DNA of 57,475 bases, from the NCBI GenBank assembly GCA_964500725.1, contig CAZCNP010000003.1, positions 1 through 57,475 of the forward strand. Direction: 5' to 3'. The notes beneath the pieces were generated by a model. The model ran no database searches, was not told the origin of the DNA, and was given only the letters and a program-made list of their open reading frames with translations. The stretch comes from an uncultured Gammaproteobacteria bacterium (GTDB lineage: Bacteria; Patescibacteriota; Microgenomatia; Daviesbacterales; UBA10151). Below, in pieces: positions 8,341 to 30,063 of the stretch (position 1 is the first letter of the stretch; each line of letters opens with the position of its first letter). A program made the position numbers and the translations under genes.

Positions 8341-8397
8341 AAAATTCTTGGTGATTAGATAAACTATTTTTAGATGAAAAGAAAGGGGGTGAAAAAT

Positions 8398-8865
8398 ATG
8401 AATATTAAAAAACTTATAGCTGGAGCGTCTGCAGGCGTAATAATGCTTAGCACTATGGCAATTCCAGCATTGGCTGTTCAACCAAATGGTCCTTCTGCTG
8501 TTAATGGTTTAGAACATCCTGGACAAGTATCTCAACTCTATCTTTATGAAAAAGATGCAAGTTGGAATGCAGTAGCCGGAGGTGCTTGGGGACAATTGAC
8601 CTTTGGTTCGGATTTTGTATTTAACGGTCATGGTTTACAACCAGATACAGAATATACATTGATTAGATATACTGATCCATGGCCAGGAAGTCCAGTATGC
8701 TTAGCATCCGGTACAAGTAATGCTGGTGGAAACATCAACTTGTCTGGTGCCATGTTAAGTGGTGGTCCTAAGATTTGGTTAGTGTTAACTAGCGATGTTA
8801 ACTGCGGAGTAGGAATGACTGGTTGGAATCCAGCAGAATATCTCTTTGAGTATAATACGATTTAA
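8398..8865 (+). CDS. secreted hypothetical protein
   Basis: SD-like AAAGGGGGTG before ATG 8398; signal peptide ending ALA. Confidence 0.75.
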   Translation: MNIKKLIAGASAGVIMLSTMAIPALAVQPNGPSAVNGLEHPGQVSQLYLYEKDASWNAVAGGAWGQLTFGSDFVFNGHGLQPDTEYTLIRYTDPWPGSPVCLASGTSNAGGNINLSGAMLSGGPKIWLVLTSDVNCGVGMTGWNPAEYLFEYNTI

Positions 8866-9487: not shown

Positions 9488-11467
9488 TTAATCCCCTATT
9501 TTCAGATTTCTTTTTATTTCATCAACGCTGATTTTTTCAAACGGGGCAACAATAATAGGCATTCTGATTCTAGCAGTTTTAGCAGTTCCCTCATCGTAAA
9601 CAACTTGGCTCAAGTAACGATTTTGGAGAGTATTGGTTAAATAGCAATCACTTTTGCTCTCTATATTTAACTTGTAATAGTTAGCACTGAAGGAAGAAAA
9701 CCGTTCTAATATAAAGTCAAGATCCTCCTCTATGCTGCATAATTTAAAATCAAAGTCAAAATTATCCAAACTGATAATCTGTATTCCACTTTTATCAAAA
9801 ATTGTTCCCTTTTTGAGGGTAGTTTGGTTTTGAGAAAGATTTTGAGCTTGTTGTTTTGATAGTAAGTCTTTGTGGATGATGATATATTGTATGCCGATAA
9901 TTTTAAGCTTTTTGAGATCATCTTCCTCAAGGGATTTTTTGAAAGGGTCCATAAACTCAAACCAGTCAGGCGGCATATAACTACTATATCCATTGATCAT
10001 TTTTTCTTGCGTTACAGTACCAAAGGTGAGATAGCTTGCTTCTTCACCCAAGTAACCAAAGGGGAAATGCAGGGTACTTTTACCGTTTAAGAAACTAAAA
10101 TTATGCTCGATAAATTGTTTTTCCCTAAGGACTTTAGAAGTAGAATCAAACTTAAAGTGATTAAGATTTTCTACTATTAATAAAACCGTGAGTGAAATAA
10201 AAATAGGTATAAGAAAGCGCCTTTTAGCTTTGTAAATTATCAGAAAACCGAAAGACACTAAAATTGAAAAAGGGATATAAAAAATAAATTGGAATCTTGA
10301 GGGAACTCTTGTGCCTTTGAAAATCGGTAGCCAATGCATAAGGTAGTAAAAAGGCAGTTTGATATTACCAAGATGCGGCCCAAAGGAAAGAACAACACTA
10401 ACCATTAAGGTGAGCAAACTTACGGATAAAAGTAATCTATCCTTAGATCTTGAAAGAAAAACCAAACCCAGGATTGCCAAGACTAAAGGTACAATATTTA
10501 TAAAAAGGGTATGCTCTTCGCTTACATCAGCATATCCCCAGCCAGGAATTTTTTCAGTCCTGTTTGTTGGCAGTAAGTTTTTATATAGAAAGTTGTTAGG
10601 AAGCGGCGAAACCCAATCTTTTAAAGTTGCTGAATAAAGCCATAGGAGCTGAAGATCAAAGGTAGCCTTTTCTTTCTGTACAAAATTAAAATAAGGAAGA
10701 TAGAAGTAAGCCAACAGAGGAATAAATATAATGAAAAGTAAGCTCTTTTTTAGGATATTTAGGAAATATATATAATTTCTTTTGTATAAATTTAGGAAAA
10801 AGAAAAATATAAGATAAATAGCTAGAGCAAAGTTACTAAAAAACATTAGGTTGAAGGAAGTTAAAGCATTGAGGGTAAAAAACAAGAAAAAAAACAGTGC
10901 ATTCTTGGTCTCCGGCTTTTTAAAAAACAAATAACCATATAATAATAAAGGAAGAAGAAAATATTTACTCATAAATTGAAGGTGATTAGGGAAATGAGCA
11001 AGAGTCAGCGGATTAAAGGTATAGACAAGGCTTCCTAAAAAGGCAGCAAACTTACTTGCAAGGTATGGAACTCGTTCATTTTTAGTAAAATAATTTAGGC
11101 AATAGAAACTGGAGATAAATGATAAAACAAAGCTTAGGAAAACATAGAAGTTTAAAGAAAAGGGTAACTCTTGGCTGATCCAATAAATAGGTGAAAAAAT
11201 TAAAGATGGAATTAATAATAATTCACTGTAAGCTAGTGAATATGGCCATGGATAGAATTGGAAAGAATTAAAATACTCAGATGGATTTAAAATTCTGCCT
11301 GTAACAAGAGAGAACTGATTGTACCAAAGGGTATAACCATTCTGAGGATAATCACCGATATCTGAATAGAACGATGTAAGATTGGCAAGAAATGGCCAAG
11401 TGAGAATTGTGGTTAAAATACTCCCGACCACTATAAGGATAAATAGTTGTAAGATTTTTTGCCTCAT
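9488..11467 (-). CDS. multi-pass membrane glycosyltransferase (YfhO/GT-C-like)
   Basis: ~12 TMs; FYPWPYSLAYSE, RVPSRF and MINGYSSY motifs. Confidence 0.7.
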   Translation of the reverse strand: MRQKILQLFILIVVGSILTTILTWPFLANLTSFYSDIGDYPQNGYTLWYNQFSLVTGRILNPSEYFNSFQFYPWPYSLAYSELLLIPSLIFSPIYWISQELPFSLNFYVFLSFVLSFISSFYCLNYFTKNERVPYLASKFAAFLGSLVYTFNPLTLAHFPNHLQFMSKYFLLPLLLYGYLFFKKPETKNALFFFLFFTLNALTSFNLMFFSNFALAIYLIFFFFLNLYKRNYIYFLNILKKSLLFIIFIPLLAYFYLPYFNFVQKEKATFDLQLLWLYSATLKDWVSPLPNNFLYKNLLPTNRTEKIPGWGYADVSEEHTLFINIVPLVLAILGLVFLSRSKDRLLLSVSLLTLMVSVVLSFGPHLGNIKLPFYYLMHWLPIFKGTRVPSRFQFIFYIPFSILVSFGFLIIYKAKRRFLIPIFISLTVLLIVENLNHFKFDSTSKVLREKQFIEHNFSFLNGKSTLHFPFGYLGEEASYLTFGTVTQEKMINGYSSYMPPDWFEFMDPFKKSLEEDDLKKLKIIGIQYIIIHKDLLSKQQAQNLSQNQTTLKKGTIFDKSGIQIISLDNFDFDFKLCSIEEDLDFILERFSSFSANYYKLNIESKSDCYLTNTLQNRYLSQVVYDEGTAKTARIRMPIIVAPFEKISVDEIKRNLKIGD

Positions 11468-11500
11468 TTAATTTCTCTAATTCCTAATTATTTCCAATTT

Positions 11501-11650
11501 TCAAACACCCTTTTCCCTACCCAAATTCACGTTTTTCTCCGTATTGTTTGGATTAATCGAACTCCATGAACCGGTAATCATATAGGGAATTTTACTTTTA
11601 TCCAAAAAATGCGTGATATCTTTTAAGATTTTTGCCTGAGGGGTTTCCAT
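11501..11650 (-). pseudogene. N-terminal fragment of nucleotidyltransferase-like gene
   Basis: METPQAKILKDITHFLDKSKIPYMITGSWSSI then unrelated sequence; homologous to start of 12731-13127. Confidence 0.65.
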
Positions 11651-11656
11651 TAATAT

Positions 11657-11791
11657 TTAAGCGCCCATTTTTGCTTTTCCCATCTTTCTCACATCCCGTA
11701 CCATCTGAGAAAGACTCATAGCTAAACGGATTTTTTTCTCTCCGGACATTTGGGCGTATTTTTTTAATATGAATGTTGTAAGTTTATTCAT
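11657..11791 (-). CDS. 44-aa partner of the nucleotidyltransferase (Rv0623-like)
   Basis: MNKLTTFILKKYAQMSGEKKIRLAMSLSQMVRDVRKMGKAKMGA; stop 6 nt before NTase ATG; below ORF-track cutoff. Confidence 0.55.
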   Translation of the reverse strand: MNKLTTFILKKYAQMSGEKKIRLAMSLSQMVRDVRKMGKAKMGA

Positions 11792-11887
11792 AAATATACT
11801 ATCTTCCACCCAATTATATACTTTCTGCGAAAGACTGTAATTTTCGCTGACTCAAATTATAGCATTCTTACAAATAGATCTCGGAAT

Positions 11888-12004
11888 TGGCTCCCCCTAA
11901 AGGATTTATTCATCAACCGAAAGTTAGAGTTTAACTGTGATCTTAGTAGCCTAAAAATCCTCTACTCTGAGCTTAAGATACCAAAACCTAACTTCTTAAT
12001 TTAA
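11888..12004 (+). repeat. junction J1: attP-like core plus recombinase C-terminal tail remnant
   Basis: TGGCTCCCC followed by open frame WLPLKDLFINRKLEFNCDLSSLKILYSELKIPKPNFLI. Confidence 0.55.
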
Positions 12005-12280
12005 AATTATTTCTTTCTCCCCTTTTATGTATTGACGAATTAATAAACTAATTAGGGTCTGGTAAGCTATACCATTCCTCTTGGCCTTAGCTTTAATTTT
12101 AATAAGATCCTCTATATTAACCCTTAAGGTAATGCTCTTGGTTTCTTGTAGCAACCTAAAGTTTTTAGCTGCCTCCTGAAACATTTGTTTAGTAGCTTCT
12201 AGATTAGGAATACTAACAAATTCGCCCTTTTCTAAAGCATTTTCTAAATCTTTCTCGTATTTATCAAGTATCACTTTCAT
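11996..12280 (-). CDS. BrnA-like antitoxin (C-terminal RHH)
   Basis: KSITLRV...KAKRNGIAYQTLI motif; coupled to BrnT-like gene. Confidence 0.85.
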   Translation of the reverse strand: MKVILDKYEKDLENALEKGEFVSIPNLEATKQMFQEAAKNFRLLQETKSITLRVNIEDLIKIKAKAKRNGIAYQTLISLLIRQYIKGEKEIILN

Positions 12281-12575
12281 TTTTGGCGCCTCCTTTCAGA
12301 TATTTATCAGTCAACACCCTGCTTGGATAGGCTGTTTTAAGAAAAATTACTTTTCTTTTTTTATCTATTACGTAAGGCACTGCATATATATAATCTTTTA
12401 TCTTTATTACTAATATTCTCTGGTGAGGATATTTTTTGCTATTATGCTGTATATCACCTAGTATTTGCTTTTCTTCAACAGCAGTAACGACATCCTCCAA
12501 CCCCACTCCCCTAGTTTCTTTTAATAACAAATTCTTCTCTTCAGAAAACTCAAGTCTGTAACCCTGATACTTCAC
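12264..12575 (-). CDS. BrnT-like toxin
   Basis: EFSEEKNLLLKETRGVGLEDV...YAVPYV...FLKTAYPSR. Confidence 0.85.
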   Translation of the reverse strand: MKYQGYRLEFSEEKNLLLKETRGVGLEDVVTAVEEKQILGDIQHNSKKYPHQRILVIKIKDYIYAVPYVIDKKRKVIFLKTAYPSRVLTDKYLKGGAKNESDT

Positions 12576-12681
12576 TAATATATTATAGTCTTTGTATGTA
12601 CTTTGTCAATACACAAAAACTGATTGTCTGTTAAATATCTATAGCTTAACAACTAAACACTAAGAACCAGCCAGTTCAATA

Positions 12682-12715
12682 ATGTGCCACTTGGCTCCGT
12701 ATTCCTAGTCTTAAT
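12682..12715 (+). repeat. junction J2 (34 bp identical to J6)
   Basis: ATGTGCCACTTGGCTCCGTATTCCTAGTCTTAAT also at 19728-19761. Confidence 0.85.
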
Positions 12716-12730
12716 AAAATTTATTGTTTG

Positions 12731-13127
12731 TTAAATATACTCTTCCAGATCTATTTTGTTTAACATTTCAAAATACTTTTTTAGATTAAGTCTACTTATC
12801 CAATGACTTAAATATTTATAGTCTAATTTTTTCTCCTGTATTTGTAAAACAAAAGCAGCATCAATGAGGTGTTTTTCTATCTCATTTCAGAATTGTTGGG
12901 AGATGCAAAACTTGAAATTGATTTTGTTTTTTAATTGCCTCTTTAATAGTTTCAAGTTGTATCATAAAAGTTTCTGGTAGGCGGGAGAAAATTTTTGTAA
13001 GCTTTCCTTCCTCTTCTAGCTTAAACTCTACTACAAAATCAATATCATGGGATGCCCGTGGCCTACCGTAGTAAATCGAGCTCCATGAACCGGTAATCAT
13101 GTAGGAAATTTTATTTGATAATGACAT
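12731..13127 (-). pseudogene. nucleotidyltransferase (MNT-like) pseudogene, 5' truncated with internal deletion and frameshift
   Basis: YMITGSWSSIYYGRPRASHDIDF motif, stop at 12882; C-terminus EKHLIDAAFVLQIQ...LDYKYLSHW continues in another frame to 12731. Confidence 0.75.
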
Positions 13128-13132
13128 TTATA

Positions 13133-13933
13133 TTAAGGGGTAACCCACTGAGGAACAACTTTCATTTGATAATCCACAGCCATACCTCTATATAAACAGG
13201 CGATTGTGATAGGTAAAGGATTTCTTCTTAGATCTTCTCCAAGGGTTGCATAAGCCTCTTGGGCTAAAGCTATCAGATCTTTTGGATCTGCTTCTTGAGT
13301 AAAACGCATTACTGAGCTATGAAAAATATCATGATAGTCATTTGGTGTAAAATTTCCTTCAACAGGTGGTTGGCTCGTTGATTTTAAGTTACCTACGGCA
13401 TGAGCAATAATCCTATCCATCACTCTCCTTGCTCTAAAAACTCCTCCTTGTTCTGCATCAAACTTACCTGCGCAAACATAGGTAGTTGGAGCAGCGATTA
13501 CTAAGGTATCATGATGAAATGTTAAGCCCTCAAGTATTTTAGCAAGTAAGTTCAAATGGGAATTATTAGAAGCTAAATATTTTTTAATAGCTTCCATTTG
13601 CTCTGGATCTAAATTGGTAAATCTGCCTGGCTGCAAAACAACATGAGGAGGACCATCACCTATTCCCGGATAAACAGCAGTAATATTATGCGCTTCTGCT
13701 AATTGGCGCAAAGGATTAACAACTCTTTCTATAACAAGTTTTTGGGAAGGTTCATCTAATAAAAGTATCGTATCAAAAGTTCTCCCTGAGTGTTTTTCTA
13801 TAGACCAACCTGTAAATAAAGGTAGCTCTCCAGAGGCAATTTTTTTTAACCCTTCAGCTTTATTCTTGTCAATCTTTGCAGTGTAAGCTGCCTGTTCTTG
13901 AGCAACTATTTCTGGGTTTTTTACTGGATACAA
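13133..13933 (-). CDS. hypothetical protein, possible 2H-phosphoesterase fold
   Basis: 266-aa ORF; PHVV and FHSS loosely resemble two HxT/S motifs. Confidence 0.45.
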   Translation of the reverse strand: MYPVKNPEIVAQEQAAYTAKIDKNKAEGLKKIASGELPLFTGWSIEKHSGRTFDTILLLDEPSQKLVIERVVNPLRQLAEAHNITAVYPGIGDGPPHVVLQPGRFTNLDPEQMEAIKKYLASNNSHLNLLAKILEGLTFHHDTLVIAAPTTYVCAGKFDAEQGGVFRARRVMDRIIAHAVGNLKSTSQPPVEGNFTPNDYHDIFHSSVMRFTQEADPKDLIALAQEAYATLGEDLRRNPLPITIACLYRGMAVDYQMKVVPQWVTP

Positions 13934-14279
13934 TACATAGCCACTCCCCTTCGCTTTTTATACTCATCAGATCCATCTAAACCATCAAGAACGGCTGTAT
14001 ATTTTGGATTTTTCCCAGGATAAACGAACCATGCTCTTCAGAGGAAACTTGAAAAGCAAGCTGTGTATCTTTAAGCGCATTCAATACTGCATCTTCTGCT
14101 TGAATATCCATTGCTAAAGCCATCTCTCCAAACGGGTTTAGCTGCGTATTAGATTTTCCAGCATCCCCCAAACGCTCATGAAGACGGTAAGTGGCTATTA
14201 GTCCGTTTATTACTGCGTTAACCAATAATCGCCCTTGCGGTGTTAGCGCGCCATTTCTTCCCAACTCTTTCGAAGTCAT
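13921..14279 (-). pseudogene. inositol monophosphatase/FBPase-family fragment, frameshifted
   Basis: DIQAED...SEEHG, then a shift in an A-run gives NPKYTAVLDGLDGS; terminates shortly after. Confidence 0.7.
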
Positions 14280-14328
14280 AAACTAAATTATAGCAGGCTT
14301 TAGAGGCAATAATCAATACTATGAGTCT

Positions 14329-14466
14329 TTGCTCCCCAGTCCTGAGATTATTAGAACTCTGATATTTAGGATTATAAAGGTTTGTGAAGATGCTATGCAA
14401 ATGGAGATAATAGTGGAAAGATGGGAAGAATTAAAAAGATTTAGGGTTATTAATCAGGCATTATAG
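14329..14466 (+). repeat. junction J3 with recombinase tail remnant
   Basis: TTGCTCCCC core; frame LPSPEIIRTLIF...IIVERWEELKRF matches the RWEEIKK tail of J6/J8. Confidence 0.65.
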
Positions 14467-15687
14467 AATTTTTTGATATTCAATGTCTGCTACACTTAAA
14501 GCCCTTTCCCATCCTACCGCTTCTGGAAACCTAATCGATCTTACAAATTCATCTAAATTAACTCTTTCTGGAACAGATATTTGTAACTGAGGCTTTGGTC
14601 GTAAAATACCCGCTACTGTAGCAATAACACTAGCCTTAGAATCTTTATGAAGACTATAATCATGTTCTTGATAACGATATCGCTCACCAAATCTTAAATG
14701 CCCTCGGTGAATAACCTCAAAATCAGAATCTTCAACGACAACCCGCACTACATCTTTATTATCCTGATCGAAGTAGAAATAGGTAGTGAAATTACTTAAA
14801 CTTTCATATTTATCCTTATTAGTTGCCAGTAACATTGCAACATTACTAACCAACGAGTCGGCAATTAATTCAACTCTTTGATAAGCATCTTCTCTTGTAT
14901 TAAAGTCAAAAGGTAAATCTCCTATCACTTCATCCGCTAAATCACAAGATACAGCATCAATTTCCTCTTGACTATAATCATCCTTCAGGTGTTCTGCTAC
15001 TGTACTACCTACTATGGCAACAACTTCCATTCTAGCTCTTGCTTTTTCATCCTCAGACCAAGCCCGCATAATCTCATCGGCCTTTCTTTTTGGATCATCT
15101 TTTGCCCAGTCTAAGTATTCCTTCTGAGCAGTATCAGGTTCATCATGAATAGGTCCCATTTCGGGGTAAAACGTAGCCATGGCTCCTTCAATACGACAAA
15201 GCTGGGCTAAAGCTTTGAGATTATCAGGTAAAAGTTGTCGAAGCTCATCTTGGTATGCAACCATTAAATCTGTAGAATTATGATGCACTCTAACTTCATA
15301 AAGTTCTCCTCTTTTATAGGCGACGAAGAAAAAATCTGGGACCGATTCATCTGCTATTTGTAACCATACTTCCCAAGAAGACAAGGCAGTATCGGGTTCT
15401 AATGTAACCTCCTTATGTAATCCGTCAGCGTGTTTTTCAATAACATAGCTTGGCTCTTGTGGGATATTACCAGATTCTATCTTACGAGACACATATCGAT
15501 ATAATGGACTACTGGGTAATCTATCCGTTCTTGATTCCCGAAAACTTTTTAAGTCCTTATTCCAAACAGTAGTAGCTCCTGTTACAGCGTCAATTTGTGT
15601 ACACTCCATGATAATCCGATCGGACCGCCTTTGTCTACGCCAATTTGATCTTGGGCCAGGCATTAAATCCAGTGGTAATCTCTCCAT
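14461..15687 (-). CDS. hypothetical protein
   Basis: 408-aa ORF, no motif recognised. Confidence 0.7.
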   Translation of the reverse strand: MERLPLDLMPGPRSNWRRQRRSDRIIMECTQIDAVTGATTVWNKDLKSFRESRTDRLPSSPLYRYVSRKIESGNIPQEPSYVIEKHADGLHKEVTLEPDTALSSWEVWLQIADESVPDFFFVAYKRGELYEVRVHHNSTDLMVAYQDELRQLLPDNLKALAQLCRIEGAMATFYPEMGPIHDEPDTAQKEYLDWAKDDPKRKADEIMRAWSEDEKARARMEVVAIVGSTVAEHLKDDYSQEEIDAVSCDLADEVIGDLPFDFNTREDAYQRVELIADSLVSNVAMLLATNKDKYESLSNFTTYFYFDQDNKDVVRVVVEDSDFEVIHRGHLRFGERYRYQEHDYSLHKDSKASVIATVAGILRPKPQLQISVPERVNLDEFVRSIRFPEAVGWERALSVADIEYQKIL

Positions 15688-15692
15688 AACCT

Positions 15693-16568
15693 TTATGCTT
15701 TATTCTGTTGAGAAGCTTTAATTAAATCTTGACCATGCATACTTAAATAATTTAGACCTCTGACTAAGCGATCCAAAGGTACTGTTGGTGCGGCTATTAC
15801 TTCTAGTAATGAGTGCTTCACAAAAGGTTCGTTAAAACGAGGCATAGGTAATTCATATCCTGGTACTTCTGGCAAACCAATTCTACCTACTATACGATCT
15901 CTTGCCTCTCTCATTCCTGAACTAAGTAAATTGAGAATGTTATAGCCTCCATTAAGAATAACATAAAGTTCACTTGTTCTAAGGGCAATATCAACTGGAC
16001 TATCCCCACTAACCACTTTAGCTCCAACTATGACAGGTATTAAGAAGAGATCAAATAACAATAAAGATTTATAGCTTGCATAAACAGCTAGATTATATTT
16101 TCCACTATTTAAAAGCTTTTCTCTTTTTAAACAGCTTGTTAAACCCCTTGAAACTTCTCCACGGAATGCCTCAACATACATATCATCAAACTTTCTCTTC
16201 CCATCATTTGACCTTGCAACCCTATCGGCAAGTTCCTGATCATTTATAGCTACAAGCCAAACACCATCTTCTCTTTTTGTTTCCACCATGCCATCTCCAT
16301 GCCAAAATTCCATCCTGGGCATTTTAAGAAACTTTGCTACTCTCACGAACCCAATTTCATCATAATCGCGAACCCTATCTTGAGGTTTTTGGATAATAAC
16401 AATATCATCTCTCATATCGCTTACCCTCATAAATCCATCTGCAATAGGATCATTTAATTGCATTAGATCTTTTGCAACACCGTGATATCCATCGAGTGAA
16501 ATTTGTTTAGCGTGTTTAAATTTATAGCCTTGTGGCTCACGATCCAACATAAGTGTACTATTATACAA
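15693..16568 (-). CDS. hypothetical protein with hydrophobic segment
   Basis: 291-aa ORF. Confidence 0.7.
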   Translation of the reverse strand: MYNSTLMLDREPQGYKFKHAKQISLDGYHGVAKDLMQLNDPIADGFMRVSDMRDDIVIIQKPQDRVRDYDEIGFVRVAKFLKMPRMEFWHGDGMVETKREDGVWLVAINDQELADRVARSNDGKRKFDDMYVEAFRGEVSRGLTSCLKREKLLNSGKYNLAVYASYKSLLLFDLFLIPVIVGAKVVSGDSPVDIALRTSELYVILNGGYNILNLLSSGMREARDRIVGRIGLPEVPGYELPMPRFNEPFVKHSLLEVIAAPTVPLDRLVRGLNYLSMHGQDLIKASQQNKA

Positions 16569-16719
16569 TAACTATAAGACTTCATACAAGTTCAGAGTGA
16601 TCAAAATTTGCACGATGTCCATTGTAATCAAGGCTTTTCAGAACCCAATATGGACAGAGCAAGCTAGGGAAAGACTCAAACAAATTCACACTTTAACCAG
16701 AGTAGCTGCTATTTAAATT

Positions 16720-17448
16720 CTAGTTTGAGAATTTAAAGGTTGAAATGATCTGATCATATAAAGAAGTGTTTTGCCATTCTGAAAGTGGTATATCTTTCGG
16801 GCTTATAGGCTTACCCTGTGAATAAAACTGCTCTCGAACATCAATTGTATAGATCTTTTTATTATGTACTAATACAACTGTTTTCATAGGAATAGGCGCA
16901 GTTGATTCACTTGTTTGTCCCCCTATAAAATTATTAACATAACTAATTTTAATTGCTGAAGTTCCACTCAATTCCAGATTTTCCTCTTTATTAATAACAG
17001 GACTCATATCCTTTGTAAGATTTCTCAACCAGACTTCCTTTGCAGAGAGTGTTGAATCTTTTTCGCTTAACTCCTCAACTTTAATAGTGATATGTCCACA
17101 ATATTTTGTTGTTTCCCAACAATTTTTTGATCCTTCTAATGTAACCCAAAAATGTTGTGCTATGAATTCTGGTGTTTGGCCTGGGCCTGACCCACCTAAG
17201 TTCCAGGCATTAGGATAATTAATAGAGTAACCATATTTAGTATTAGTAAATATTTGCCAGGAATCAGTAGGTGCCTGGGTAATTGATGGTGTTGGTTGTG
17301 GTGTATTAGCTACATTTTGAGCGATTGATTGTTGAGAGGAAGGAATAACACTGTTTTTCTGCATTAAATAATAAACCCCACCTCCAATTAAAACCAAAAG
17401 GAAAACCACAATTAATATTAGTGTTAAGGATAATCCTTTTTGGTTCAT
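16720..17448 (-). CDS. membrane-anchored PsbP-like surface protein
   Basis: MNQKG pilin-like N-terminus, TM, W..FTN.KYGYSI.YP..W, ending DQIISTFKF. Confidence 0.7.
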   Translation of the reverse strand: MNQKGLSLTLILIVVFLLVLIGGGVYYLMQKNSVIPSSQQSIAQNVANTPQPTPSITQAPTDSWQIFTNTKYGYSINYPNAWNLGGSGPGQTPEFIAQHFWVTLEGSKNCWETTKYCGHITIKVEELSEKDSTLSAKEVWLRNLTKDMSPVINKEENLELSGTSAIKISYVNNFIGGQTSESTAPIPMKTVVLVHNKKIYTIDVREQFYSQGKPISPKDIPLSEWQNTSLYDQIISTFKFSN

Positions 17449-17521
17449 AAATTAAATATAACATCCCAAGAAAAAATAGTCATCCTAATGACCACCAACA
17501 TGGTTCGATTAAGAACAGTTC

Positions 17522-17538
17522 AGCTCCTTGACCTGGAT
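17522..17538 (+). repeat. degenerate copy of tRNA-Asn 3' end (attR-like)
   Basis: AGCTCCTTGACCTGGAT vs AGCTCCTCGACCTGGAT at 34454-34470 (16/17). Confidence 0.7.
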
Positions 17539-17659
17539 AATCACGTATCCTTCGAAGACTCAGGATTAACGAACAGCTTCCCACTACGTGGGGCGCAGTC
17601 ACAAATCCACAGGCAAAGGATAACAAAAAAGTGAATGCAAGACCCACTTTTTTGATTAT

Positions 17660-17818
17660 GCTCGCCAAGCCTTGATATATTATACCAGCCTATTTTAGAT
17701 GCATTCTCGAATAAGCAGAGCTTCTCAGCGGCGCTTACAGCTTGCTGATAAAAGTTACATGGGTGAATTGAGGCAAAGATGGCTGGAGATTAAGAAATTA
17801 CAACAAAATACAATGTAA
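17660..17818 (+). repeat. junction J4, homologous to J8
   Basis: GCTCGCCAAGCCTTGA start; ATAAAAGTTACATGGGTGAA (17748-17767) identical to 23005-23024. Confidence 0.8.
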
Positions 17819-17819
17819 A

Positions 17820-18125
17820 TTACAGTTGCATATACTCTACAACAATATTAATAATTTTCTGCACGTTTTCATTACAGTTTTTGAAGCTTATTTTATCTAA
17901 CACATCGCTCCCAAATTCTCTAATTACTTCGCTTATTAATGCATGAATAAAAGACTGGGTTGTTGAATCGATTTTATCGAAATCTAAAATAACCTCTTCG
18001 TTTTTTTTCAGAAGAGGTGTGATTTCGTTAAGTCTAATCTCTCTTGCTATATCTTTATCTTCAGCAAAGCTCCCAACTTTAGGAAACAGTTTTATCTGAA
18101 AGAGAACTTTGTTCATCTCTTTCAT
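17820..18125 (-). CDS. STAS-like domain protein (DUF4325-like)
   Basis: VILDFDKIDSTTQSFIHALISE motif; downstream of HATPase gene. Confidence 0.8.
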   Translation of the reverse strand: MKEMNKVLFQIKLFPKVGSFAEDKDIAREIRLNEITPLLKKNEEVILDFDKIDSTTQSFIHALISEVIREFGSDVLDKISFKNCNENVQKIINIVVEYMQL

Positions 18126-19084
18126 ATAAATTTAGCTTTCTTATAATATTCTTTTCTTCTTTCTCTAACAGATTGAGAGTATGTTTGGTTAATGAGCCCT
18201 AAAAGGGTCGAGAACTCTTCTCTATCATCAAGCTTAATATCAACACCTACAACAGTACCTTGCCAATTAGGAAAGTCTTCCCCTTCAGAATGTTTATCTT
18301 TAGAAGGATCACTATGCAGACGTATTTGTTTTTTACTGTCTGCTTTTAATAATTTATACATTGCCTTCCCACTATAAATTACAAAAAAATCTTTATTGAC
18401 TGTTGCAATTGATTTGATAAAAAATAGTCCTGCCCCTGCGTTATAATCAGTACCGCCTATCCTCCTTGTTGTTCCTGTTATACCAGGAGTTAAAGCTAAT
18501 TTGATCGCTTCAATATCATTGCGTACTCGATGTGAAGCGGAAATTGTTTTCATAATCCCTACACCCCTATCAACAATCCCAATTCTTATGGTATTGCTTT
18601 TTTTATAATACTGAGCACATAGAATGGCACCCACTGGAGACTCGGCATGCTCAAATACATTCCGCATGAGTTCACTTAATATATATCTAATAGGTTCAAC
18701 TTGATTTGGCTCCAAATGCAATAATGGAATTACCTCGGTAATAAAATCAGTCAAATTTTCACTGTTATCTATCTGTTTAAGCGGTATAAACCTTCCTGCC
18801 GGTTCATGTTCTGTAATTTCAATACCAGAATCAATATTTAACAGATCAAATAAACCCATTCTTTTAAGATAGTGTTTCGATCTAGCTTCCATGTGTTCAC
18901 ATTGAATATTTTTAGGTTTAAGAGAAAGACCAAGAGCCGCGACCATAGAAAGCACAATCGGGTGTATTGATATCCATTGTTTATTTGCCGTAATCTCTAA
19001 TACCTCTGGGTTAGAAGTATCAAAAGTTCTAAGAAATGGGTCAATATTACCCAAAAAAGCACTATTTGGTATATGGATTTTCAT
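18122..19084 (-). CDS. HATPase_c/GHKL (anti-sigma kinase-like) ATP-binding protein
   Basis: SELMRNVFEH (N box), IVDRGVGI (G1), NAGAGLFF (G2), QGTVV (G3). Confidence 0.82.
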   Translation of the reverse strand: MKIHIPNSAFLGNIDPFLRTFDTSNPEVLEITANKQWISIHPIVLSMVAALGLSLKPKNIQCEHMEARSKHYLKRMGLFDLLNIDSGIEITEHEPAGRFIPLKQIDNSENLTDFITEVIPLLHLEPNQVEPIRYILSELMRNVFEHAESPVGAILCAQYYKKSNTIRIGIVDRGVGIMKTISASHRVRNDIEAIKLALTPGITGTTRRIGGTDYNAGAGLFFIKSIATVNKDFFVIYSGKAMYKLLKADSKKQIRLHSDPSKDKHSEGEDFPNWQGTVVGVDIKLDDREEFSTLLGLINQTYSQSVRERRKEYYKKAKFI

Positions 19085-19093
19085 AATATGACC

Positions 19094-19148
19094 ATTTTAC
19101 CGGGAATCCCGGAGAAAGTCAAGTTTTACCGGGAATCCCGGAGAAAGT
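19094..19148 (-). promoter_or_regulatory. sigma70 promoter embedded in tandem palindromic operator
   Basis: TTGACT-N17-TAAAAT on minus strand; 25-bp direct repeat (19095-19119, 19124-19148), each with CCGGGA-A-TCCCGG. Confidence 0.75.
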
Positions 19149-19204
19149 ATAACTGAGATATAAATCCTGGTAACACAATCCTAAATTATGTAGATCATCA
19201 ACTT

Positions 19205-19232
19205 TGGCTCGAGAATCGTAACTCTAATATAA
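19205..19232 (+). repeat. junction J5 (28 bp identical to J7)
   Basis: TGGCTCGAGAATCGTAACTCTAATATAA also at 21161-21188; both followed by ACCAAG..TAGCTTGT. Confidence 0.85.
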
Positions 19233-19368
19233 GAACCTTTCGCTTCGCTCAAGAACCTTGATTCTCACTATTGCTCGAATTAACCAAGCAATTAGCTTGT
19301 TTAATCAAGAACTTTGAAGATTTTATATTAGTCTCCCAAATCAGAAAACAAATAGAAACAACTAAAAT

Positions 19369-19710
19369 TTATTTATAAGTTGTTTCGTGTGGGTTTAAGA
19401 CCAAAGGATAAACGTCAAGAGCCACTTCTTCATAAGGATGTACTTTTTTAATAGCCTTGATTACCTTATCTAAATCATCTTTGTAACACACAGTTTCAAT
19501 TCTTTCTTCTTTAACTTCTTCTAATTTACCTATTTTCCCAATTGTGGGATGCGCGGTTTCAAGTGGAATAAAACGTCCCACTCCTTTAATAGAAAAACTA
19601 CAATATTTATAATCTCCAATTAAACCAGCTCCCGCTTCCCCCATTGCTTCTCTAACAATATCAGCATGAGTCTCCGGAACAAAAACGACTATTTTTACAG
19701 TTCCTCTCAT
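19369..19710 (-). CDS. YqfO/NIF3-associated PII-like protein
   Basis: KIVVFVP...GAGLIGDY..CSF..G.G.F...HPYEEVALDVYPL. Confidence 0.85.
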   Translation of the reverse strand: MRGTVKIVVFVPETHADIVREAMGEAGAGLIGDYKYCSFSIKGVGRFIPLETAHPTIGKIGKLEEVKEERIETVCYKDDLDKVIKAIKKVHPYEEVALDVYPLVLNPHETTYK

Positions 19711-19720
19711 ATTAATTTTG

Positions 19721-19857
19721 GTATATTATGTGCCACTTGGCTCCGTATTCCTAGTCTTAATCGAACTGGTAGTTTGAATTCAATTATAACAGCTTTTCAG
19801 AATCCAGTAGTTGTTGAGCTCAAACAAAGATGGGGAAGAAACAAAAAAGTTAAATAA
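19721..19857 (+). repeat. junction J6 with recombinase tail remnant
   Basis: GTATATTATGTGCCACTTGGCTCC matches 22935-22958 at 22/24; tail WLRIPSL...VELKQRW. Confidence 0.85.
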
Positions 19858-19862
19858 CAATT

Positions 19863-20993
19863 TTAGGTAAATAAATTAACATATTCTTGATAAGAGAATA
19901 CCCTATTTCTTTTCTGCCCAGTCAATTCATGCAAAATCCCTAGCTTAACAAATCTTTCAACTAATATAAGCGCATTGGGGTTAGATAAGAAGATTATTCT
20001 TTCAACATCTTTTACCCGTACTAATGGTGTGCGATAAAGCACATTAAGTAACTTAATACCTCTTTCTGCCGATTTTCCCATTCCAGCAACTTTATTCAAG
20101 TGATTATCTCTTAACTTAATTATTTTTCTTGCAGTCTCCACTGCTTTTTCTGAAGTCTCAATAACTCCCTCCATAAAGAACTTTAACCATTCCTCAATAG
20201 CATCATCTTTTCTATACTGATTAAGCTTTTCGTAATAATCTTGTCTATGCTCTTTAAAAAAAGCAGACAAATATAACAGCTGTTTCCGCAAGACACCTTG
20301 CTGACACAAATAGAAAGTTACTAATAACCTACCAATTCTACCGTTTCCATCCAGAAAAGGGTGAACCGTTTCAAACTGAGCATGAATAAGGCCAGTTTTA
20401 ATAAGAATTGGCACTAACGAATTATCATGCATATATTCTTCCAGATTACCCATTAGAGGCATTACCTCACGATGAGGGGGCGGTATGAATTTAGCAGTTT
20501 GTAGATCAGCTCCTCCTATCCAGTTTTGAGAGGTTCTGAATTCTCCAGGGGTTTTCCATTCTCCTCTAACCCCCCTCAAAAGTATCTTATGAATTTCTCT
20601 GATTAGCCTTAACGAAAGAGGAATTTGATCTAGTCTCTCTAACCCGTAGTTCATCGCAGAAATGTAATTTAAAACTTCATCTACGTCTTTATGGGCTTCT
20701 AAGTCTTCTATCTTAGCCTCTGCTTTAAGTACATCTACAAAAGTTGCTTGCGTACCCTCTATTTGACTTGATAAGGTAGCTTCTTTTCTAACATACATTA
20801 GGATAAAGAAATCTATAATATCCTTTGGTAGGATATCTGCTACTCCATCAAGCCTCCCTAGTGCAAGATCTGCTTTTGAAAGAAGTGTTTGTAATTCTGG
20901 ATCTATATTAACCTCAAAAGGAAGACTACTAGGCATAAAAGCTTTATAACGTAAAACTCCTGCTAATTGGTTAATAAAAGTACCTGTTCGCAT
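19863..20993 (-). CDS. Fic family protein (Fic_N, Fic, C-terminal HTH)
   Basis: HPFLDGNGRIGR; EATLSSQIEGT. Confidence 0.93.
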   Translation of the reverse strand: MRTGTFINQLAGVLRYKAFMPSSLPFEVNIDPELQTLLSKADLALGRLDGVADILPKDIIDFFILMYVRKEATLSSQIEGTQATFVDVLKAEAKIEDLEAHKDVDEVLNYISAMNYGLERLDQIPLSLRLIREIHKILLRGVRGEWKTPGEFRTSQNWIGGADLQTAKFIPPPHREVMPLMGNLEEYMHDNSLVPILIKTGLIHAQFETVHPFLDGNGRIGRLLVTFYLCQQGVLRKQLLYLSAFFKEHRQDYYEKLNQYRKDDAIEEWLKFFMEGVIETSEKAVETARKIIKLRDNHLNKVAGMGKSAERGIKLLNVLYRTPLVRVKDVERIIFLSNPNALILVERFVKLGILHELTGQKRNRVFSYQEYVNLFT

Positions 20994-21003
20994 ATTTTTC
21001 TCC

Positions 21004-21101
21004 CATAGATAAGATTTTTATTATCTATGTTTACTATAATAAAACATAGATAACACTATGTCAACCCTTGAGAAGCATAGATAAGATTTTCGCTATCTAT
21101 G
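21004..21101 (-). promoter_or_regulatory. Fic promoter with palindromic operators
   Basis: CATAGATA-N10-TATCTATG at 21004-21029 and 21076-21101; TTGACA(21059-64)-N17-TATTAT(21036-41) on minus strand. Confidence 0.75.
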
Positions 21102-21160
21102 GATGCGGATAGAAACAATAAAAATATAATAAGTGGCTTTGTGGGTTATAAAATTGAACC

Positions 21161-21276
21161 TGGCTCGAGAATCGTAACTCTAATATAACCAAGAACTAGC
21201 TTGTATCTACAAGACTCTCTTTGACTTTAGGCTTGTAGTTCAAATCAAAGAGGAAATAGAAAAAGTGGAACTATAG
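21161..21276 (+). repeat. junction J7 with tail remnant
   Basis: 28-bp identity to J5; tail QELACIYKTLFDFRLVVQIKEEIEK parallels KQLACLIKNFEDFILVSQIRKQIE after J5. Confidence 0.8.
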
Positions 21277-21933
21277 TTATTCTGTAACACACTCAATATC
21301 AAAATCGTCAGAAAATTCGTCTTTTCCTAAACGTTTCTTCTCCTCCACTGCAAAAGTGAACAATTCTCTTAACGTGTTTCTGGCCTGAGTAATATCCAAG
21401 TTATCCCAATAGTCAATTGTGTTCATTTTGCCGTTTTGAACAATATAATCATCTAAACACTCTTTACCATCACCCGACCTTACGAACCCCCTATGTACAC
21501 TACTCGAAAAATGTAACCCAGTAGTATCAATAGACCAAAAAAGTTCGTGTACCTCATAGCTATTGTTTTGAGAATTTTTGCCACATAGGTCAAAAAAAGC
21601 AGTTACCTCATTAGGGAAAATATGCATATTACGTTTAAGTTGTTCATGCACATCTTTTTCAATTAAATTTCTGAAGTCCTCGCTTATGTGTTTTAAGCTC
21701 TTATTATTCCATTGGTTTGAATTTTCGTATTCGAAACAAAGTTTTTCCCAAGATTTATTTCCGAATTCATTTACTCCGTGATTGAAAATCATCAGAGGAA
21801 TGCTGGCAAATTTGTATATTTTATTAAACCCATCATTATTTTGTACCAATCCATTTTTATACCTTCTTCTGTTTCTTTTATCAGCACATACACATATTCC
21901 ATTTTTACATAATGCAGTAAGAATGAGGGTCAT
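21277..21933 (-). CDS. putative Ntn-hydrolase (proteasome beta-like) peptidase
   Basis: Starts M-TLILTALCKNGICVCADKR, like T1...D17..R19 of proteasome/HslV subunits; later RSG. Confidence 0.55.
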   Translation of the reverse strand: MTLILTALCKNGICVCADKRNRRRYKNGLVQNNDGFNKIYKFASIPLMIFNHGVNEFGNKSWEKLCFEYENSNQWNNKSLKHISEDFRNLIEKDVHEQLKRNMHIFPNEVTAFFDLCGKNSQNNSYEVHELFWSIDTTGLHFSSSVHRGFVRSGDGKECLDDYIVQNGKMNTIDYWDNLDITQARNTLRELFTFAVEEKKRLGKDEFSDDFDIECVTE

Positions 21934-21935
21934 AT

Positions 21936-22925
21936 TTAGCTTTTAATCATTGCATCAAAAACAAAAGGGCTACTCTTTGAAAGAGCTAATGATTGAAAAT
22001 ATTCAAGAGTGTTAACCATAGCATCGTTCACTTCATAAATAAATTTTTTGGATGCGATTTTTTCATTACCAATTAAAACAAAAAGTTCTCCTACTAACTC
22101 ACCTTTCTCGACTAATGAGAGTTCAAAATTCTCAAATTCAATTGTCAGACGTGTAGAGTCTGCAGTGTTTAAAATGATCGGGAATCTTGTAGTATAATCC
22201 GGTTCTCTAGAACTGTTTGGATTGATTTTAAAGAATTTTTTAAAATGAACTATCCCATCATTTAATCTTACATAGGAGCCTTTAATAACAGTAGGCTGTC
22301 CATGATTATTAGTAACAGCAAACTCTAGTTGTATCCTTGTTCCAGGTAATTCTGGGCTTTTAACTATACCCATGAACGGGCTAAGAGTTATAGAAACCTT
22401 GTCATCAAATGGAACGTTCCCTGATTTTTCTGCTTCAATTTCTTCTCCTCCAGTGACGATTGTATCTGGAATCTGTGGACTGGGTGTAGCCATATAAATA
22501 TTGTTTATTATATAACTGTCTCCTTCTTTAATTTCTACTTTGTTATGCCCTAAATTGATAGAACCTAATGAGGGATTGAGGGGTTCTAGATTTAATATAG
22601 ATCCCTCATGGTCTTTTTTCATTTTCTTCAAAGTTTCCACTGTGTATTTTATTGGATCATCATCTATTTCTTTATGACAAGTTTTACATAACCAAATTCC
22701 GTTTTTAATATCACTTCTTTCCTCGGGAGTCATTTTGGAATTATATCTAGCAGAGGTAGGTTGGACTCCCTCAATATGAGCAGCATCACCCACAATAGTT
22801 GCTTTTGTTGGGGTGGAATTTCCTCCGCTTGTATGTCTTTTGCATTTAGAACAAACTTGACCTGCTCGCTTAGCTAATATATCAACTGTAGTTTTGTTAA
22901 AGTCATTAGGGTTAGATTTTGGCAT
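21936..22925 (-). CDS. HNH endonuclease domain protein with unknown C-terminal domain
   Basis: CSKC...AAHIEG...NGIWLCKTCHKEID. Confidence 0.85.
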   Translation of the reverse strand: MPKSNPNDFNKTTVDILAKRAGQVCSKCKRHTSGGNSTPTKATIVGDAAHIEGVQPTSARYNSKMTPEERSDIKNGIWLCKTCHKEIDDDPIKYTVETLKKMKKDHEGSILNLEPLNPSLGSINLGHNKVEIKEGDSYIINNIYMATPSPQIPDTIVTGGEEIEAEKSGNVPFDDKVSITLSPFMGIVKSPELPGTRIQLEFAVTNNHGQPTVIKGSYVRLNDGIVHFKKFFKINPNSSREPDYTTRFPIILNTADSTRLTIEFENFELSLVEKGELVGELFVLIGNEKIASKKFIYEVNDAMVNTLEYFQSLALSKSSPFVFDAMIKS

Positions 22926-22934
22926 AATGTTTAA

Positions 22935-23081
22935 GTATATTAAGTGCCAATTGGCTCCTCAAGCCTTGACTTATTATACCCCCAAATTTTGGAGACTTTA
23001 TCAAATAAAAGTTACATGGGTGAACTTAGGCAAAGATGGGAAGAAATTAAGAAACTAAGAGATAATTACCAGTTCGCCTGA
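22935..23081 (+). repeat. junction J8 = attL of the intact element, carrying a 39-codon recombinase tail
   Basis: TGGCTCCTC shares core GCTCCTC with 34455-34461; open frame SLDLLYPQILETLSNKSYMGELRQRWEEIKKLRDNYQFA to TGA 23079-81. Confidence 0.8.
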
Positions 23082-23161
23082 TGTTTGTAGCTTCCATTGA
23101 ACATGGTATCAATTTTTTTAAATATTGACCAATTAATATCTTAAAGAGTAATATCCAGTTA

Positions 23162-23548
23162 GTGAATAAGGCCCACATCATAGCAATATATTTAGCTTTA
23201 GGAATTTTGGCATTATTTACTTTCTTTGGTAATAATCAAAACTCTGACCTAGACCAGATAAAAGACAGGGTGACAAAAGTTGAATTTTTCCAAGAAGCTA
23301 CAAGAGTTAGAGAGAATATTGTGGGATTTAAACAAGTAAATGCTTCCTTGGTAAATGATACAGAAAGAGCAAAGAGCTGTACTGAAAGTAAAGATTTATT
23401 AACTGAATGGACAGAAGATATAAAAAAGCTGGGCTTAGACTTTGGAACCTATATGACTAATCATCAAGAGGCTAAGGATTACTTTGATACAATCAGTAAA
23501 CTTAATGATGTTAATATTACTGAATGTAATAAGTTAACTAGCAAATGA
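23162..23548 (+). CDS. membrane-anchored hypothetical protein
   Basis: N-terminal TM, helical C-terminus with Cys pair. Confidence 0.65.
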   Translation: MNKAHIIAIYLALGILALFTFFGNNQNSDLDQIKDRVTKVEFFQEATRVRENIVGFKQVNASLVNDTERAKSCTESKDLLTEWTEDIKKLGLDFGTYMTNHQEAKDYFDTISKLNDVNITECNKLTSK

Positions 23549-25179: not shown

Positions 25180-25246
25180 TAGAACACTCTTTACAGCAAA
25201 AAGTTGTTGTAAAAGTTTAATTTTAAGAGTAATATAATAAGCATTC

Positions 25247-25501
25247 ATGAAAAAATTGCTTATCAGTCTACTCCTTGGAGTCTTTGTTTTCTCTATCCTT
25301 ATTCCAACTGGCGTAGAGGCTGCTTCCAGAGTTAAAGGTTATACTAAGAAAAATGGTACCTATGTTGCACCCCACTATAAAACCCCACCAAATAAATCAA
25401 AATTTGACAATTTCAGTACAAAGGGTAATATCAATCCTTATACTGGTAAAAAGGGTACTGTAAATCCCTATAAATTCACACCCAAAAAATACAAACGATA
25501 G
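25247..25501 (+). CDS. small secreted basic protein (VKGYTKKNGTYVAPHY family)
   Basis: Signal peptide; homologous to N-domain of upstream gene. Confidence 0.75.
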   Translation: MKKLLISLLLGVFVFSILIPTGVEAASRVKGYTKKNGTYVAPHYKTPPNKSKFDNFSTKGNINPYTGKKGTVNPYKFTPKKYKR

Positions 25502-25570
25502 TTGCCCGAAAGCATTTATTTATCCTGTTATAAAGGGACTTAATATAAGAATTGGGTAAATTTATTTTAC

Positions 25571-26917: not shown

Positions 26918-26923
26918 AGTTGG

Positions 26924-28129: not shown

Positions 28130-28203
28130 TGTTATTATTTATATCTTACATGTTATTATAGCCAGATTAGAACCAGCTTGAATAGGCTTTTATTCACCTG
28201 TAC

Positions 28204-30045: not shown

Positions 30046-30063
30046 AAAAGAATTACCTTATGT

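Follow-up and report, generated by a model that had tools for sequence, protein, structure and literature searches.

Composite islands of the staphylococcal cassette chromosome (SCC) contain psiSCC units that have no ccr genes and are bordered by repeats of the integration site; such units are believed to need the recombinase of an SCC next to them (PMC2900268; 10.1101/336396). The tycheposon islands of Prochlorococcus arise by integration at tRNA genes, where new arrivals push older elements inward and partial tRNA repeats and degenerate remnants are found; their cargo includes defence and adaptation genes, and a minority of them use large serine recombinases (10.1101/2020.12.28.424599). The 'suicidal' integrases of the SSV type have the attachment (att) site in their own gene, parts of which are split to the ends of the element. 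They were described in a 2021 review as exclusive to archaea, and their excision is thought to need an intact copy of the integrase, the gene being fragmented by integration (PMC8371274). Here we describe an array of short gene cassettes in a DNA stretch of 57,475 nucleotides (contig CAZCNP010000003.1 of assembly GCA_964500725.1, positions 1 to 57,475, referred to as the window; assigned in the analysis to contig JACQIW010000012.1 of assembly GCA_016198315.1) from a groundwater Microgenomates bacterium of the candidate phyla radiation (CPR), whose nearest relatives by anchor genes are Daviesbacteria. The array is the older part of an island of approximately 23 kb (about 11536-34459), and its cassettes are delimited by junctions that derive from a large serine recombinase (LSR) with the attP site inside its own reading frame.

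The comparison with these systems shows both likeness and difference. As with the Ccr recombinases of SCC, large serine recombinases integrate here at one site, the 3' end of a conserved gene; units are stacked in tandem with repeated integration-site sequences, and some of them have no recombinase. We found serine-recombinase integration at a single chromosomal site and att junctions delimiting tandem units. However, the target is tRNA-Asn and not rlmH, the host is a CPR bacterium, the units are much smaller (0.5-3.3 kb), units without a recombinase are the overwhelming majority, and the att site lies inside the recombinase reading frame. By its target alone the island falls outside SCC. The resemblance to SCC is functional only, and SCC is the closest working analogue. 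With tycheposons the island shares tRNA targeting, tandem stacking and remnants, whereas tycheposons mostly use tyrosine recombinases, the repeats left behind there are partial tRNAs and not recombinase gene ends, and the fragmented integrases reported there were not found here. With the SSV type it shares an att site inside the integrase reading frame and a gene that is partitioned on integration, but the archaeal enzymes are tyrosine recombinases, while the enzyme described here is a serine recombinase that loses only a C-terminal extension of about 40 residues.

An earlier reading of the window, made from the sequence only, had taken the array for an integron analogue of which no description was known, although SCC composite islands with psiSCC units and tycheposon islands had already been reported. 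The likeness to integrons lies in short, co-oriented, mostly single-gene cassettes between recombination sites near one recombinase gene. Integrons have the tyrosine recombinase IntI, folded single-stranded attC sites and attI, none of which is present here, and a common promoter Pc, which the array appears to lack. Its junctions are double-strand-type dyad sites with a tail, and hairpin repeats like those of attC were not seen. The array is therefore no integron. Two further systems bear on the comparison. In the accretion and mobilisation of streptococcal cis-mobilisable elements (CIMEs) and integrative and conjugative elements (ICEs), recombinase-less units flanked by att sites can be co-excised with a neighbouring integrative element by tyrosine recombinases. 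In the integration-dependent immunity of mycobacteriophages, attP in the 3' end of a gene alters the product on integration; that gene encodes the repressor, and the recombinase is again of the tyrosine type.

The tRNA-Asn target and the recombinase beside it

Neither ARAGORN nor the Rfam tRNA model called a tRNA near the array. The gene was missed because a group I intron of 233 nt (34494-34726) splits its anticodon loop: tRNA-Asn(GUU) occupies 34455-34760 on the minus strand, with exons at 34727-34760 and 34455-34493. The Rfam model RF00028 found the intron at 34502-34737 on the minus strand with 85 bits, and its removal in silico gave a canonical 73-nt tRNA-Asn(GUU) that ARAGORN recognised. 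The junction core is the antisense of the 3' end of this tRNA, GCTCC corresponding to the last acceptor-stem bases and the discriminator, and the antisense relationship proposed from the sequence alone was thus borne out by the spliced tRNA. The array itself had been placed at tRNA-Asn, but a resident element of 11.5 kb (22954-34459, plus strand) lies between them. An intron-split tRNA-Asn is also present in the related loci L011, L012, L014, L018, L019 and L020, and in L023 the gene is uninterrupted.

A single intact recombinase at the tRNA had also been proposed, and this was confirmed. The LSR gene (32969-34507, plus strand), the sole one of its kind in the window, adjoins tRNA-Asn 10 kb to the right of the array. 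It encodes, in its integrated form, 512 residues, the last 17 codons being antisense tRNA-Asn. Pfam matches to Resolvase (6e-33), Recombinase (1e-12) and Zn_ribbon_recom (1e-9) give the domain layout of the class, with a resolvase catalytic domain, a recombinase domain and a zinc ribbon with a coiled coil; in the AlphaFold (AF2) model of the homologue P0033, long helices (344-448) lie between the zinc-ribbon strands. Another large open reading frame (ORF), of 659 aa (9488-11467) and located beside the array, was considered as a recombinase and rejected; it matches no family, and its translation looks like that of a hydrophobic membrane protein with several passes.

The resident element is flanked by attR (34432-34480, plus strand), in which the left arm of the element, GGTTATAATAACAGACTTGA, is followed by GCTCC (34455-34459) and the tRNA arm TCGACCTGGATTCGAACC, and by attL, the junction J8 (22928-23081, plus strand), in which a left arm of the alpha type is followed by GCTCC and the right arm TCAAGCCTTGACTTATTATACC. 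The core of J8 is TGGCTCC and it is followed by an intact tail of 43 codons (ending ...SYMGELRQRWEEIKKLRDNYQFA and a stop codon). The frame in which the LSR gene runs through GCTCC at 34455-34459 is the frame in which J8 reads ...GSSSLDLLYPQILETLSNKSYMGELRQRWEEIKKLRDNYQFA up to its stop codon, and joining the left arm of the LSR gene to the right arm of J8 yields a reconstructed protein of 537 aa. The reconstructed attP has the dyad symmetry of serine integrase sites (GGTTATAATAA-n4-CTTGAG CTC CTCAAG-n7-TTATTATACC), and the symmetry of the outer motifs would place the crossover at the TC within GCTCC.

The 537-aa protein was used as the query of a homologue search, which gave 654 homologues at E<1e-20, and the C-termini were analysed in the best 120 of them, all from uncultured Patescibacteria or metagenome sequences. 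Fifty of the 120 read into antisense tRNA (DSN/IRT motifs, e.g. LPREDSNLQP), and 46 stop exactly 18 residues past a conserved TPIF, an ending that corresponds to antisense tRNA with an early stop, as in L023. Antisense-tRNA endings were present in approximately 80% and long tails in about 23 of these best 120. A full-length homologue, P0033 (538 aa, with the tail ...QLRQRWNEIKKL / ...FQDLSCIGQLRQRWNEIKKLQYNV), is encoded on three contigs of 9,676 bp from three samples (L003-L005), which are circular permutations of each other with terminal overlaps of 30 bp; the P0033 element is therefore a circle of 9,646 bp. Each tail type of the window matches the C-terminus of an actual recombinase lineage, J1 that of P0022, P0048 and P0105, and J5 and J7 that of P0054.

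The tail that follows each core is the C-terminal coding end of the LSR itself, and the attP site is located within the frame of the LSR gene, some 40 codons ahead of its stop codon. The sequence-only reading had noticed the tails and had not recognised what they are. The model of P0033 is confident to about residue 490, while the crossover codons 497-499 and the tail have a pLDDT below 50. What is exchanged on integration is only a flexible C-terminal extension of about 40 residues, the catalytic and DNA-binding domains being left whole. The model was also considered as a source for the fold of the tail, and at a confidence below 50 no inference could be drawn from it. A serine recombinase with attP in its own 3' coding end appears to be undescribed in bacteria; a full-text literature search of incomplete coverage returned no serine integrase with attP in its own gene and no such elements in CPR bacteria. 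The split LSR gene marks the freshest element, and the difference of the protein between the free and the integrated state is an idea that can be tested. The natural attP/attB pairs of the family, all at conserved tRNA ends, may also interest users of serine integrases as tools.

Junctions in the island and in related genomes

Eight junctions had been proposed for the array, as products of a serine recombinase. All of them are present where they had been placed, they are serine-recombinase att junctions, and we added J0 at about 11533-11563 as a ninth; attR is the tenth site of the island. J0 (11533-11563, plus strand as are all junctions) is the outermost and joins a chromosomal arm to the right arm of an element (CACGTTTTT followed by CTCCGTATTGTTTGGATTAATCGAACT), with 22/27 identity to the right arm of J6. 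It has no TGG, as expected of an outermost junction of a chromosomal arm and an element arm when TGG is supplied by the elements; its tail is deleted and it is fused to a truncated nucleotidyltransferase (NTase) N-terminal fragment. J1 (11888-12004) has the core TGGCTCC and an open tail of 39 codons (WLPLKDLFINRKLEF...) of the P0022/P0048 type (tblastn to the P0022 tail, E=1e-6). J2 (12668-12730) is a complete attP-like site, with the alpha left arm ATAATGTGCCACTTG, GCTCC and a right arm, and its tail is truncated to about 12 codons. J3 (14329-14466) has the core TTGCTCC, an open tail of 46 codons (SLLPSPEIIRT...VERWEELKRFR...) and a right arm of the commonest metagenome type. J4 (17657-17815) has the core ATGCTCG and a frameshifted delta-type tail (LCSPSLDILYQPILDAFSNK / SYMGELRQRWLEIKKLQQN), which aligns with the J8 tail in two tblastn pieces of 60% and 78% identity. 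In J5 (19205-19330) the core TGGCTCG precedes an interrupted epsilon-type tail (WLENRNSNI...) that resembles the P0054 tail (LEDRDSNIT...). J6 (19714-19857) is again a complete attP-like site (GGTATATTATGTGCCACTTG followed by GCTCC; core TGGCTCC) with an open tail of 40 codons (WLRIPSLN...ELKQRWGRNKK), and J7 (21140-21276) has the left arm GGGTTATAAAATTGAACC, the core TGGCTCG and an epsilon-type tail with stops.

Homologous tails of about 40 codons had been described for most junctions. Tails do occur at the junctions, but they are of several types, with RW.E(I/L)K in J3, J4, J6 and J8, the P0022-like type in J1 and the P0054-like type in J5 and J7, and only those of J1, J3, J6 and J8 are open; J4, J5 and J7 are frameshifted or stopped, and J0 and J2 truncated. 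Two of the reported identities, J2=J6 over 34 bp (12682/19728) and J5=J7 over 28 bp (19205/21161), were found to be exact. The 20-bp run shared by J4 and J8 exists, although in the tails (17748/23005) and not at the core, and the 22/24 identity of the J6 and J8 left flanks holds if the core is counted, the flank alone giving 18/24. Only five exact repeats of at least 20 bp occur in 11401-23200, and three of them are at junction cores or tails, so that the junction repeats stand out from the background; the other two are an NTase-fragment repeat (11562/13081) and a pair of tandem 25-mers (19095/19124). The junctions are real and not chance matches.

The left arms of J2, J6 and J8 read GGTATATTAwGTGCCAmTTG before GCTCC. 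Arms of this alpha type have the same outer motif at the same 10-nt spacing as true LSR 3' ends (e.g. GGGTATATTAACGACTAATGG before GCTCC in L002), and are therefore the last approximately eight codons of lost LSR genes. An origin of these arms as chromosomal-type or pseudo-site arms was ruled out on the same motif and spacing. Recombinase-like left arms of about 20 bp had been claimed repeatedly along the array; they are clear for J2, J6, J8 and J7, and only for those. No LSR remnant other than the left arms was detected by tblastn across the array.

Fourteen tRNA-Asn loci were compared, chosen because the gene beside the tRNA is orthologous in them. All stages were found among Daviesbacteria, Gottesmanbacteria and Roizmanbacteria, from loci with no tail through loci with the recombinase at the tRNA to recombinase-less tails. 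In L012 the intron-bearing tRNA-Asn gene does not encode CCA, and a stretch of 9.7 kb beside it contains no tail. It was considered as an empty site with conserved flanks and was rejected, its downstream 652-aa ORF not being orthologous, and the left boundary of the island therefore could not be set by synteny. In L016 and L023 an LSR is located directly at the tRNA. In L020 and L014, which lack an LSR, the tRNA with CCA is followed by an alpha-type arm and, after another 22-23 nt, by the start codon of a cargo gene; L019 has three orphan tails within 5 kb, also without an LSR. Tandem complete elements were found in L002, L006 and L129, where the LSR is fused, in or out of frame, to the tail of the next element. 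No cargo was common to the window and its relatives across the 14 loci.

Metagenomes were scanned with a delta-type tail profile, which gave 80 loci with 135 tails, and recurrence in relatives, which the sequence-only reading had proposed to look for by such a search, was thereby found. The tails are co-oriented within a locus in 132/135 cases and are spaced 141-9878 nt apart, with a median of about 1.2 kb. No LSR is attached to 69 of the 70 tails with at least 1.6 kb of upstream sequence, and any LSR was present in only 3/80 loci. A C-terminal remnant of an LSR was detected in 0/67 left flanks of 900 nt, even at E<1. The left-hand gene is divergent from the tail in 50/68 cases, and its start is at a median of 64 nt from the core, as compared with 388 nt from random positions. 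In 92 pooled junctions the information per position is at most 0.14 bit in the left arm, 1.3-2.6 bit in the core and 0.3-1.3 bit in the right arm. The outer left motif is kept in 17 of these 92 metagenome junctions (18%, versus 1% by chance), and the core is mutated or missing in 30/104 tails (29%). Remnants of variable length left of the cores, as simple random decay would give, had been named as grounds for refuting the reading of mobile cassettes; this is partly the case, since the remnants vary from about 0 to 40 nt, although none is ever long. A BrnA-like antitoxin cassette present in two metagenome contigs is 92.6% identical over 752 nt; the match sets in precisely with the G of GCTCC, and on its left side the two contigs are unrelated.

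Relics, passengers or mobile cassettes

The 3' end of tRNA-Asn is where these LSR elements, with their intragenic attP, integrate; stacking yields junctions in which the left arm of one element meets the right arm of the next, and older units have no LSR. We consider it probable that the island as a whole was formed by serial site-specific integration of plasmid-like LSR elements at this position, and that the recombinase-less units are relics and at most passengers. The elements are plasmid-like episomes of about 10 kb with genes for a repressor, an excisionase-like protein, a Rep-like protein and the LSR, followed by cargo converging on the LSR gene. Integration puts the LSR, minus its tail, beside the tRNA and the tail with the cargo at the distal end of the element. 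With each further integration the left arm of the previous element and the right arm and tail of the new one form a J site. Older units have lost the whole maintenance and recombinase module, retaining the tail, one to three cargo genes and 0-40 nt of left arm, and a cassette would be mobile only as a passenger when the resident LSR element excises via an outer junction, free movement of a single unit being improbable. Most junctions are, we infer, relics. The resident element appears to have entered a site with an element-derived left arm, which suggests that discrimination of the left half-site is relaxed.

Several observations weigh against this explanation. The J2=J6 and J5=J7 identities extend just over the site while the flanks differ, which could mean that sites are maintained or were recently used. 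In five independent samples, assembly contigs with 100% identity to the window stop exactly at 21161-21163, where J7 has its TGG. This break is not explained by the J5=J7 repeat because 28 bp is shorter than k-1 for k=31, and the assemblies of the same five samples run unbroken through J0, J1, J3, J4, J5 and J8; at least two different left sequences must therefore adjoin the right arm of J7 in those samples, be it at this locus or elsewhere. The lack of any recombinase-body remnant in the 67 flanks, while tails and cores persist, is not explained by random decay. A second att-like site at the boundary between cargo and core module, considered as the cause of the clean recombinase loss, was rejected, since none was found in the intact elements looked at, namely the element of the window and the free circle. 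New elements may have been added either at the tRNA or at outer junctions.

Some of these points would fit the model of the sequence-only reading, in which non-autonomous units of attP plus cargo are moved singly in trans by the resident serine recombinase, in the manner of an integron or SCC. Recombinase-less units of one to three co-oriented genes do lie between the junctions, as it had stated. Complete attP-like sites with a cargo start codon about 20-30 nt away occur at J2, J6 and J8 and, nearest the tRNA, in L020, L014 and L036; the closeness of left-hand gene starts to the core, the missing remnants, the site-limited identities and the break at J7 would all be expected of such units, as would an enzyme that, having used a site with an element-derived left arm, tolerates non-canonical partners. 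Open orphan tails amount to 82%, versus 44-51% under a null model, with detection biased towards intact tails; taken as proof of selection this figure was set aside as weak on both counts. On the other hand, no circular mini-cassettes were found among the 80 metagenome loci and no cassette was common to different species, results that do not bear out single-cassette movement. The unbroken passage of contigs through J0, J1, J3, J4, J5 and J8, the lack of a recognisable left half-site at most junctions, the degenerate cores, and the decayed tails and truncated genes of the window also speak against it. Moreover, a junction with an element-type arm on either side resembles attP, and a pair of attP sites is normally no substrate for large serine recombinases. 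We regard this model as rather doubtful, and independent mobility of cassettes in trans is on balance less likely than passive relics or passengers.

At the other extreme, the junctions might be inert scars, identical through shared ancestry or gene conversion, with nothing moving even as a passenger. The degenerate cores, arms and tails, the pseudogene fragments in cassettes C0 and C2, and the 100% identity to the window of assemblies from at least six samples are in keeping with this; exact-protein look-ups for strain variants gave only contigs identical to the window (the look-up with the Fic protein was empty despite identical sequence). However, the resident element with its intact recombinase, intact tail, dyad attP and excisionase-like gene argues against it, as do the complete sites at some junctions, and it leaves the J7 break unexplained; we consider it quite improbable. 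The tails could also be repeated 3' ends of a chromosomal target gene, or a small repeat element independent of the recombinase, given that they are plus-strand coding-like segments ending in a stop. No plus-strand gene body lies left of the array, the 163-aa ORF at 8374-8865 being unrelated, and this origin is refuted by the match of the tails to the C-termini of full-length recombinases and by the frame continuous with the resident LSR; we give it virtually no credence.

The most far-reaching possibility, which we hold to be unlikely, is a widespread serine-recombinase cassette system of CPR bacteria in which the attP-spanning gene swaps its tail as a state switch and cassettes, each with a tail, defence or toxin-antitoxin cargo and a short arm, are exchanged between stacks at tRNAs and episomes, in trans or by co-excision. 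If true, the tail swap on integration and excision would be a possible built-in directionality or state switch, and bacteria would have in this system an equivalent of SCC islands and of the archaeal self-splitting integrases alike.

The genomes of CPR bacteria are tiny, and few ways in which they exchange genes have been recognised. A family of small episomes stacking defence and toxin-antitoxin genes at tRNAs would account for much of the variation among their strains.

Resident element, cassette cargo and neighbouring features

The cargo of the resident element is located at 23162-28129. Its core module contains an HTH_17 excisionase-like gene (58 aa, 28204-28380, minus strand), an XRE repressor gene (87 aa, 28998-29261, minus strand), an SNase gene (30064-31005), a DUF5659-like gene (81 aa, 32124-32369) and an HTH_36 Rep-like gene (32394-32732); the excisionase-like, repressor and DUF5659-like genes were named by eye from translation and position. 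The gene order DUF5659, HTH_36, LSR is common to the resident element, the 9.6-kb circle of L003-L005 and L006, and the resident element is presumably autonomous. A viral origin of the element family was considered and rejected, as no virion genes are present in the resident element and no close relative was found in IMG/VR. Among the cargo, a 544-aa protein (23545-25179) has cysteine-rich repeats that match a TNF-receptor-like domain model, with no other family match. J8 itself forms a promoter-like site on the minus strand (22962-22934): its core and right arm supply TTGAGG and, after a spacer of 17 nt, the outer motif of its left arm supplies TATACT. The site ends 8 nt before the start codon of the HNH gene of C7; the same arrangement was not seen at J6 or L020.

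The cargo of the array was annotated with the Pfam, NCBIfam and PADLOC libraries. All cargo genes are on the minus strand, in the direction of the tRNA, with one to three genes per cassette, and their stop codons are found at -9 to +5 nt relative to those of the tails. C0 (11564-11887) is a decayed cassette with an NTase N-terminal fragment (11501-11650, reading through J0) and a 50-aa ORF (11657-11809); over 43 nt it is 91% identical to the NTase start of C2 (13074-13116). C1 (11996-12575) encodes a BrnA/CopG-type antitoxin (11996-12280; Pfam CopG_antitoxin/BrnA) and an overlapping partner of 103 aa (12264-12575), a homologous gene pair being present in L015; a promoter-like site matching at 12/12 positions lies by C1 at 12609-12582. 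C2 (12882-14279) encodes an 81-aa NTase fragment, a 266-aa unknown protein and a 100-aa FBPase/IMPase-like fragment; its weak Pfam matches are under the curated cut-offs, with no NCBIfam or PADLOC match, and two of its genes look like fragments. C3 (14461-17448) has three genes, of 408, 291 and 242 aa, with no confident family.

C4 (17820-19084) encodes an HATPase_c_2 protein (18122-19084) and a DUF4325/STAS-like protein (17820-18125), both named from Pfam; a single PADLOC DrmA model matches the two of them with its N-terminal part. Just upstream of the HATPase gene, at 19095-19148, are the two exact tandem 25-mers (TTTTACCGGGAATCCCGGAGAAAGT), each with a small palindrome; they overlap a promoter-like site and may be an operator. 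C5 (19369-19710) encodes a 113-aa protein with no family in the three libraries, its ATG being 28 nt from the TGG of J6 and 30 nt from the G of GCTCC. C6 (19863-20993) encodes a Fic/DOC-family protein (Pfam Fic_N and Fic), upstream of which palindromic 26-mers at 21004-21029 and 21076-21101 (CATAGATAAGATTTT..TATCTATG), 72 nt apart, flank a promoter-like site matching at 11/12 positions. C7 (21277-22925) encodes an HNH endonuclease (21936-22925; Pfam HNH_2), which also matches the PADLOC PDC-M68A and SAVED-HNH effector models, and a 218-aa protein; the C7 ATG is 27 nt from the TGG of J8 and 29 nt from the G of GCTCC.

These assignments uphold the defence and toxin-antitoxin flavour that had been seen in the cargo, and among its names those of the BrnA/CopG-type antitoxin, HATPase_c_2 with DUF4325 (STAS-like), Fic and HNH, with weak matches for NTase and FBPase/IMPase. 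The names 2H-like, YqfO, Ntn peptidase and BrnT were without Pfam, NCBIfam or PADLOC support. Several cassettes had also been credited with promoters of their own. Some do have strong sites, but promoter-like sites occur at the level of chance (41 found versus 43.3 expected).

In L129 a complete QatABCD-like operon (KAP NTPase, QatB, QueC-like, TatD; 11664-17255) directly follows the recombinase tail of a related element, whose left neighbour carries genes for a methyltransferase and a ResIII helicase. Elsewhere in the window there is a mirror-image mini-island (44525-46108) with tRNA-Ser(UGA) (44525-44612, plus strand), an NYN-domain gene (44899-45480), a TPR gene (45462-45989) and no recombinase. 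It ends in an orphan recombinase tail (46108-45992, minus strand) that is of the P0119 type and directly adjoins a ComFC-like gene at its 3' end. Just downstream of this tRNA, at 44613-44899, a C-terminal fragment of an rve-type transposase was recognised by eye (...ESLDYDTPLEYAQKNFF.KVLPIWSA...), and in the metagenome contig L073 (2359-2447) a fragment much like it stands in place of a cassette's right end, which suggests that an insertion sequence lands in these islands. Finally, a 360-aa ORF with LAGLIDADG homing-endonuclease domains (38842-39924, minus strand) overlaps a tRNA-Ser(GGA) call (38807-38896) by about 55 nt.

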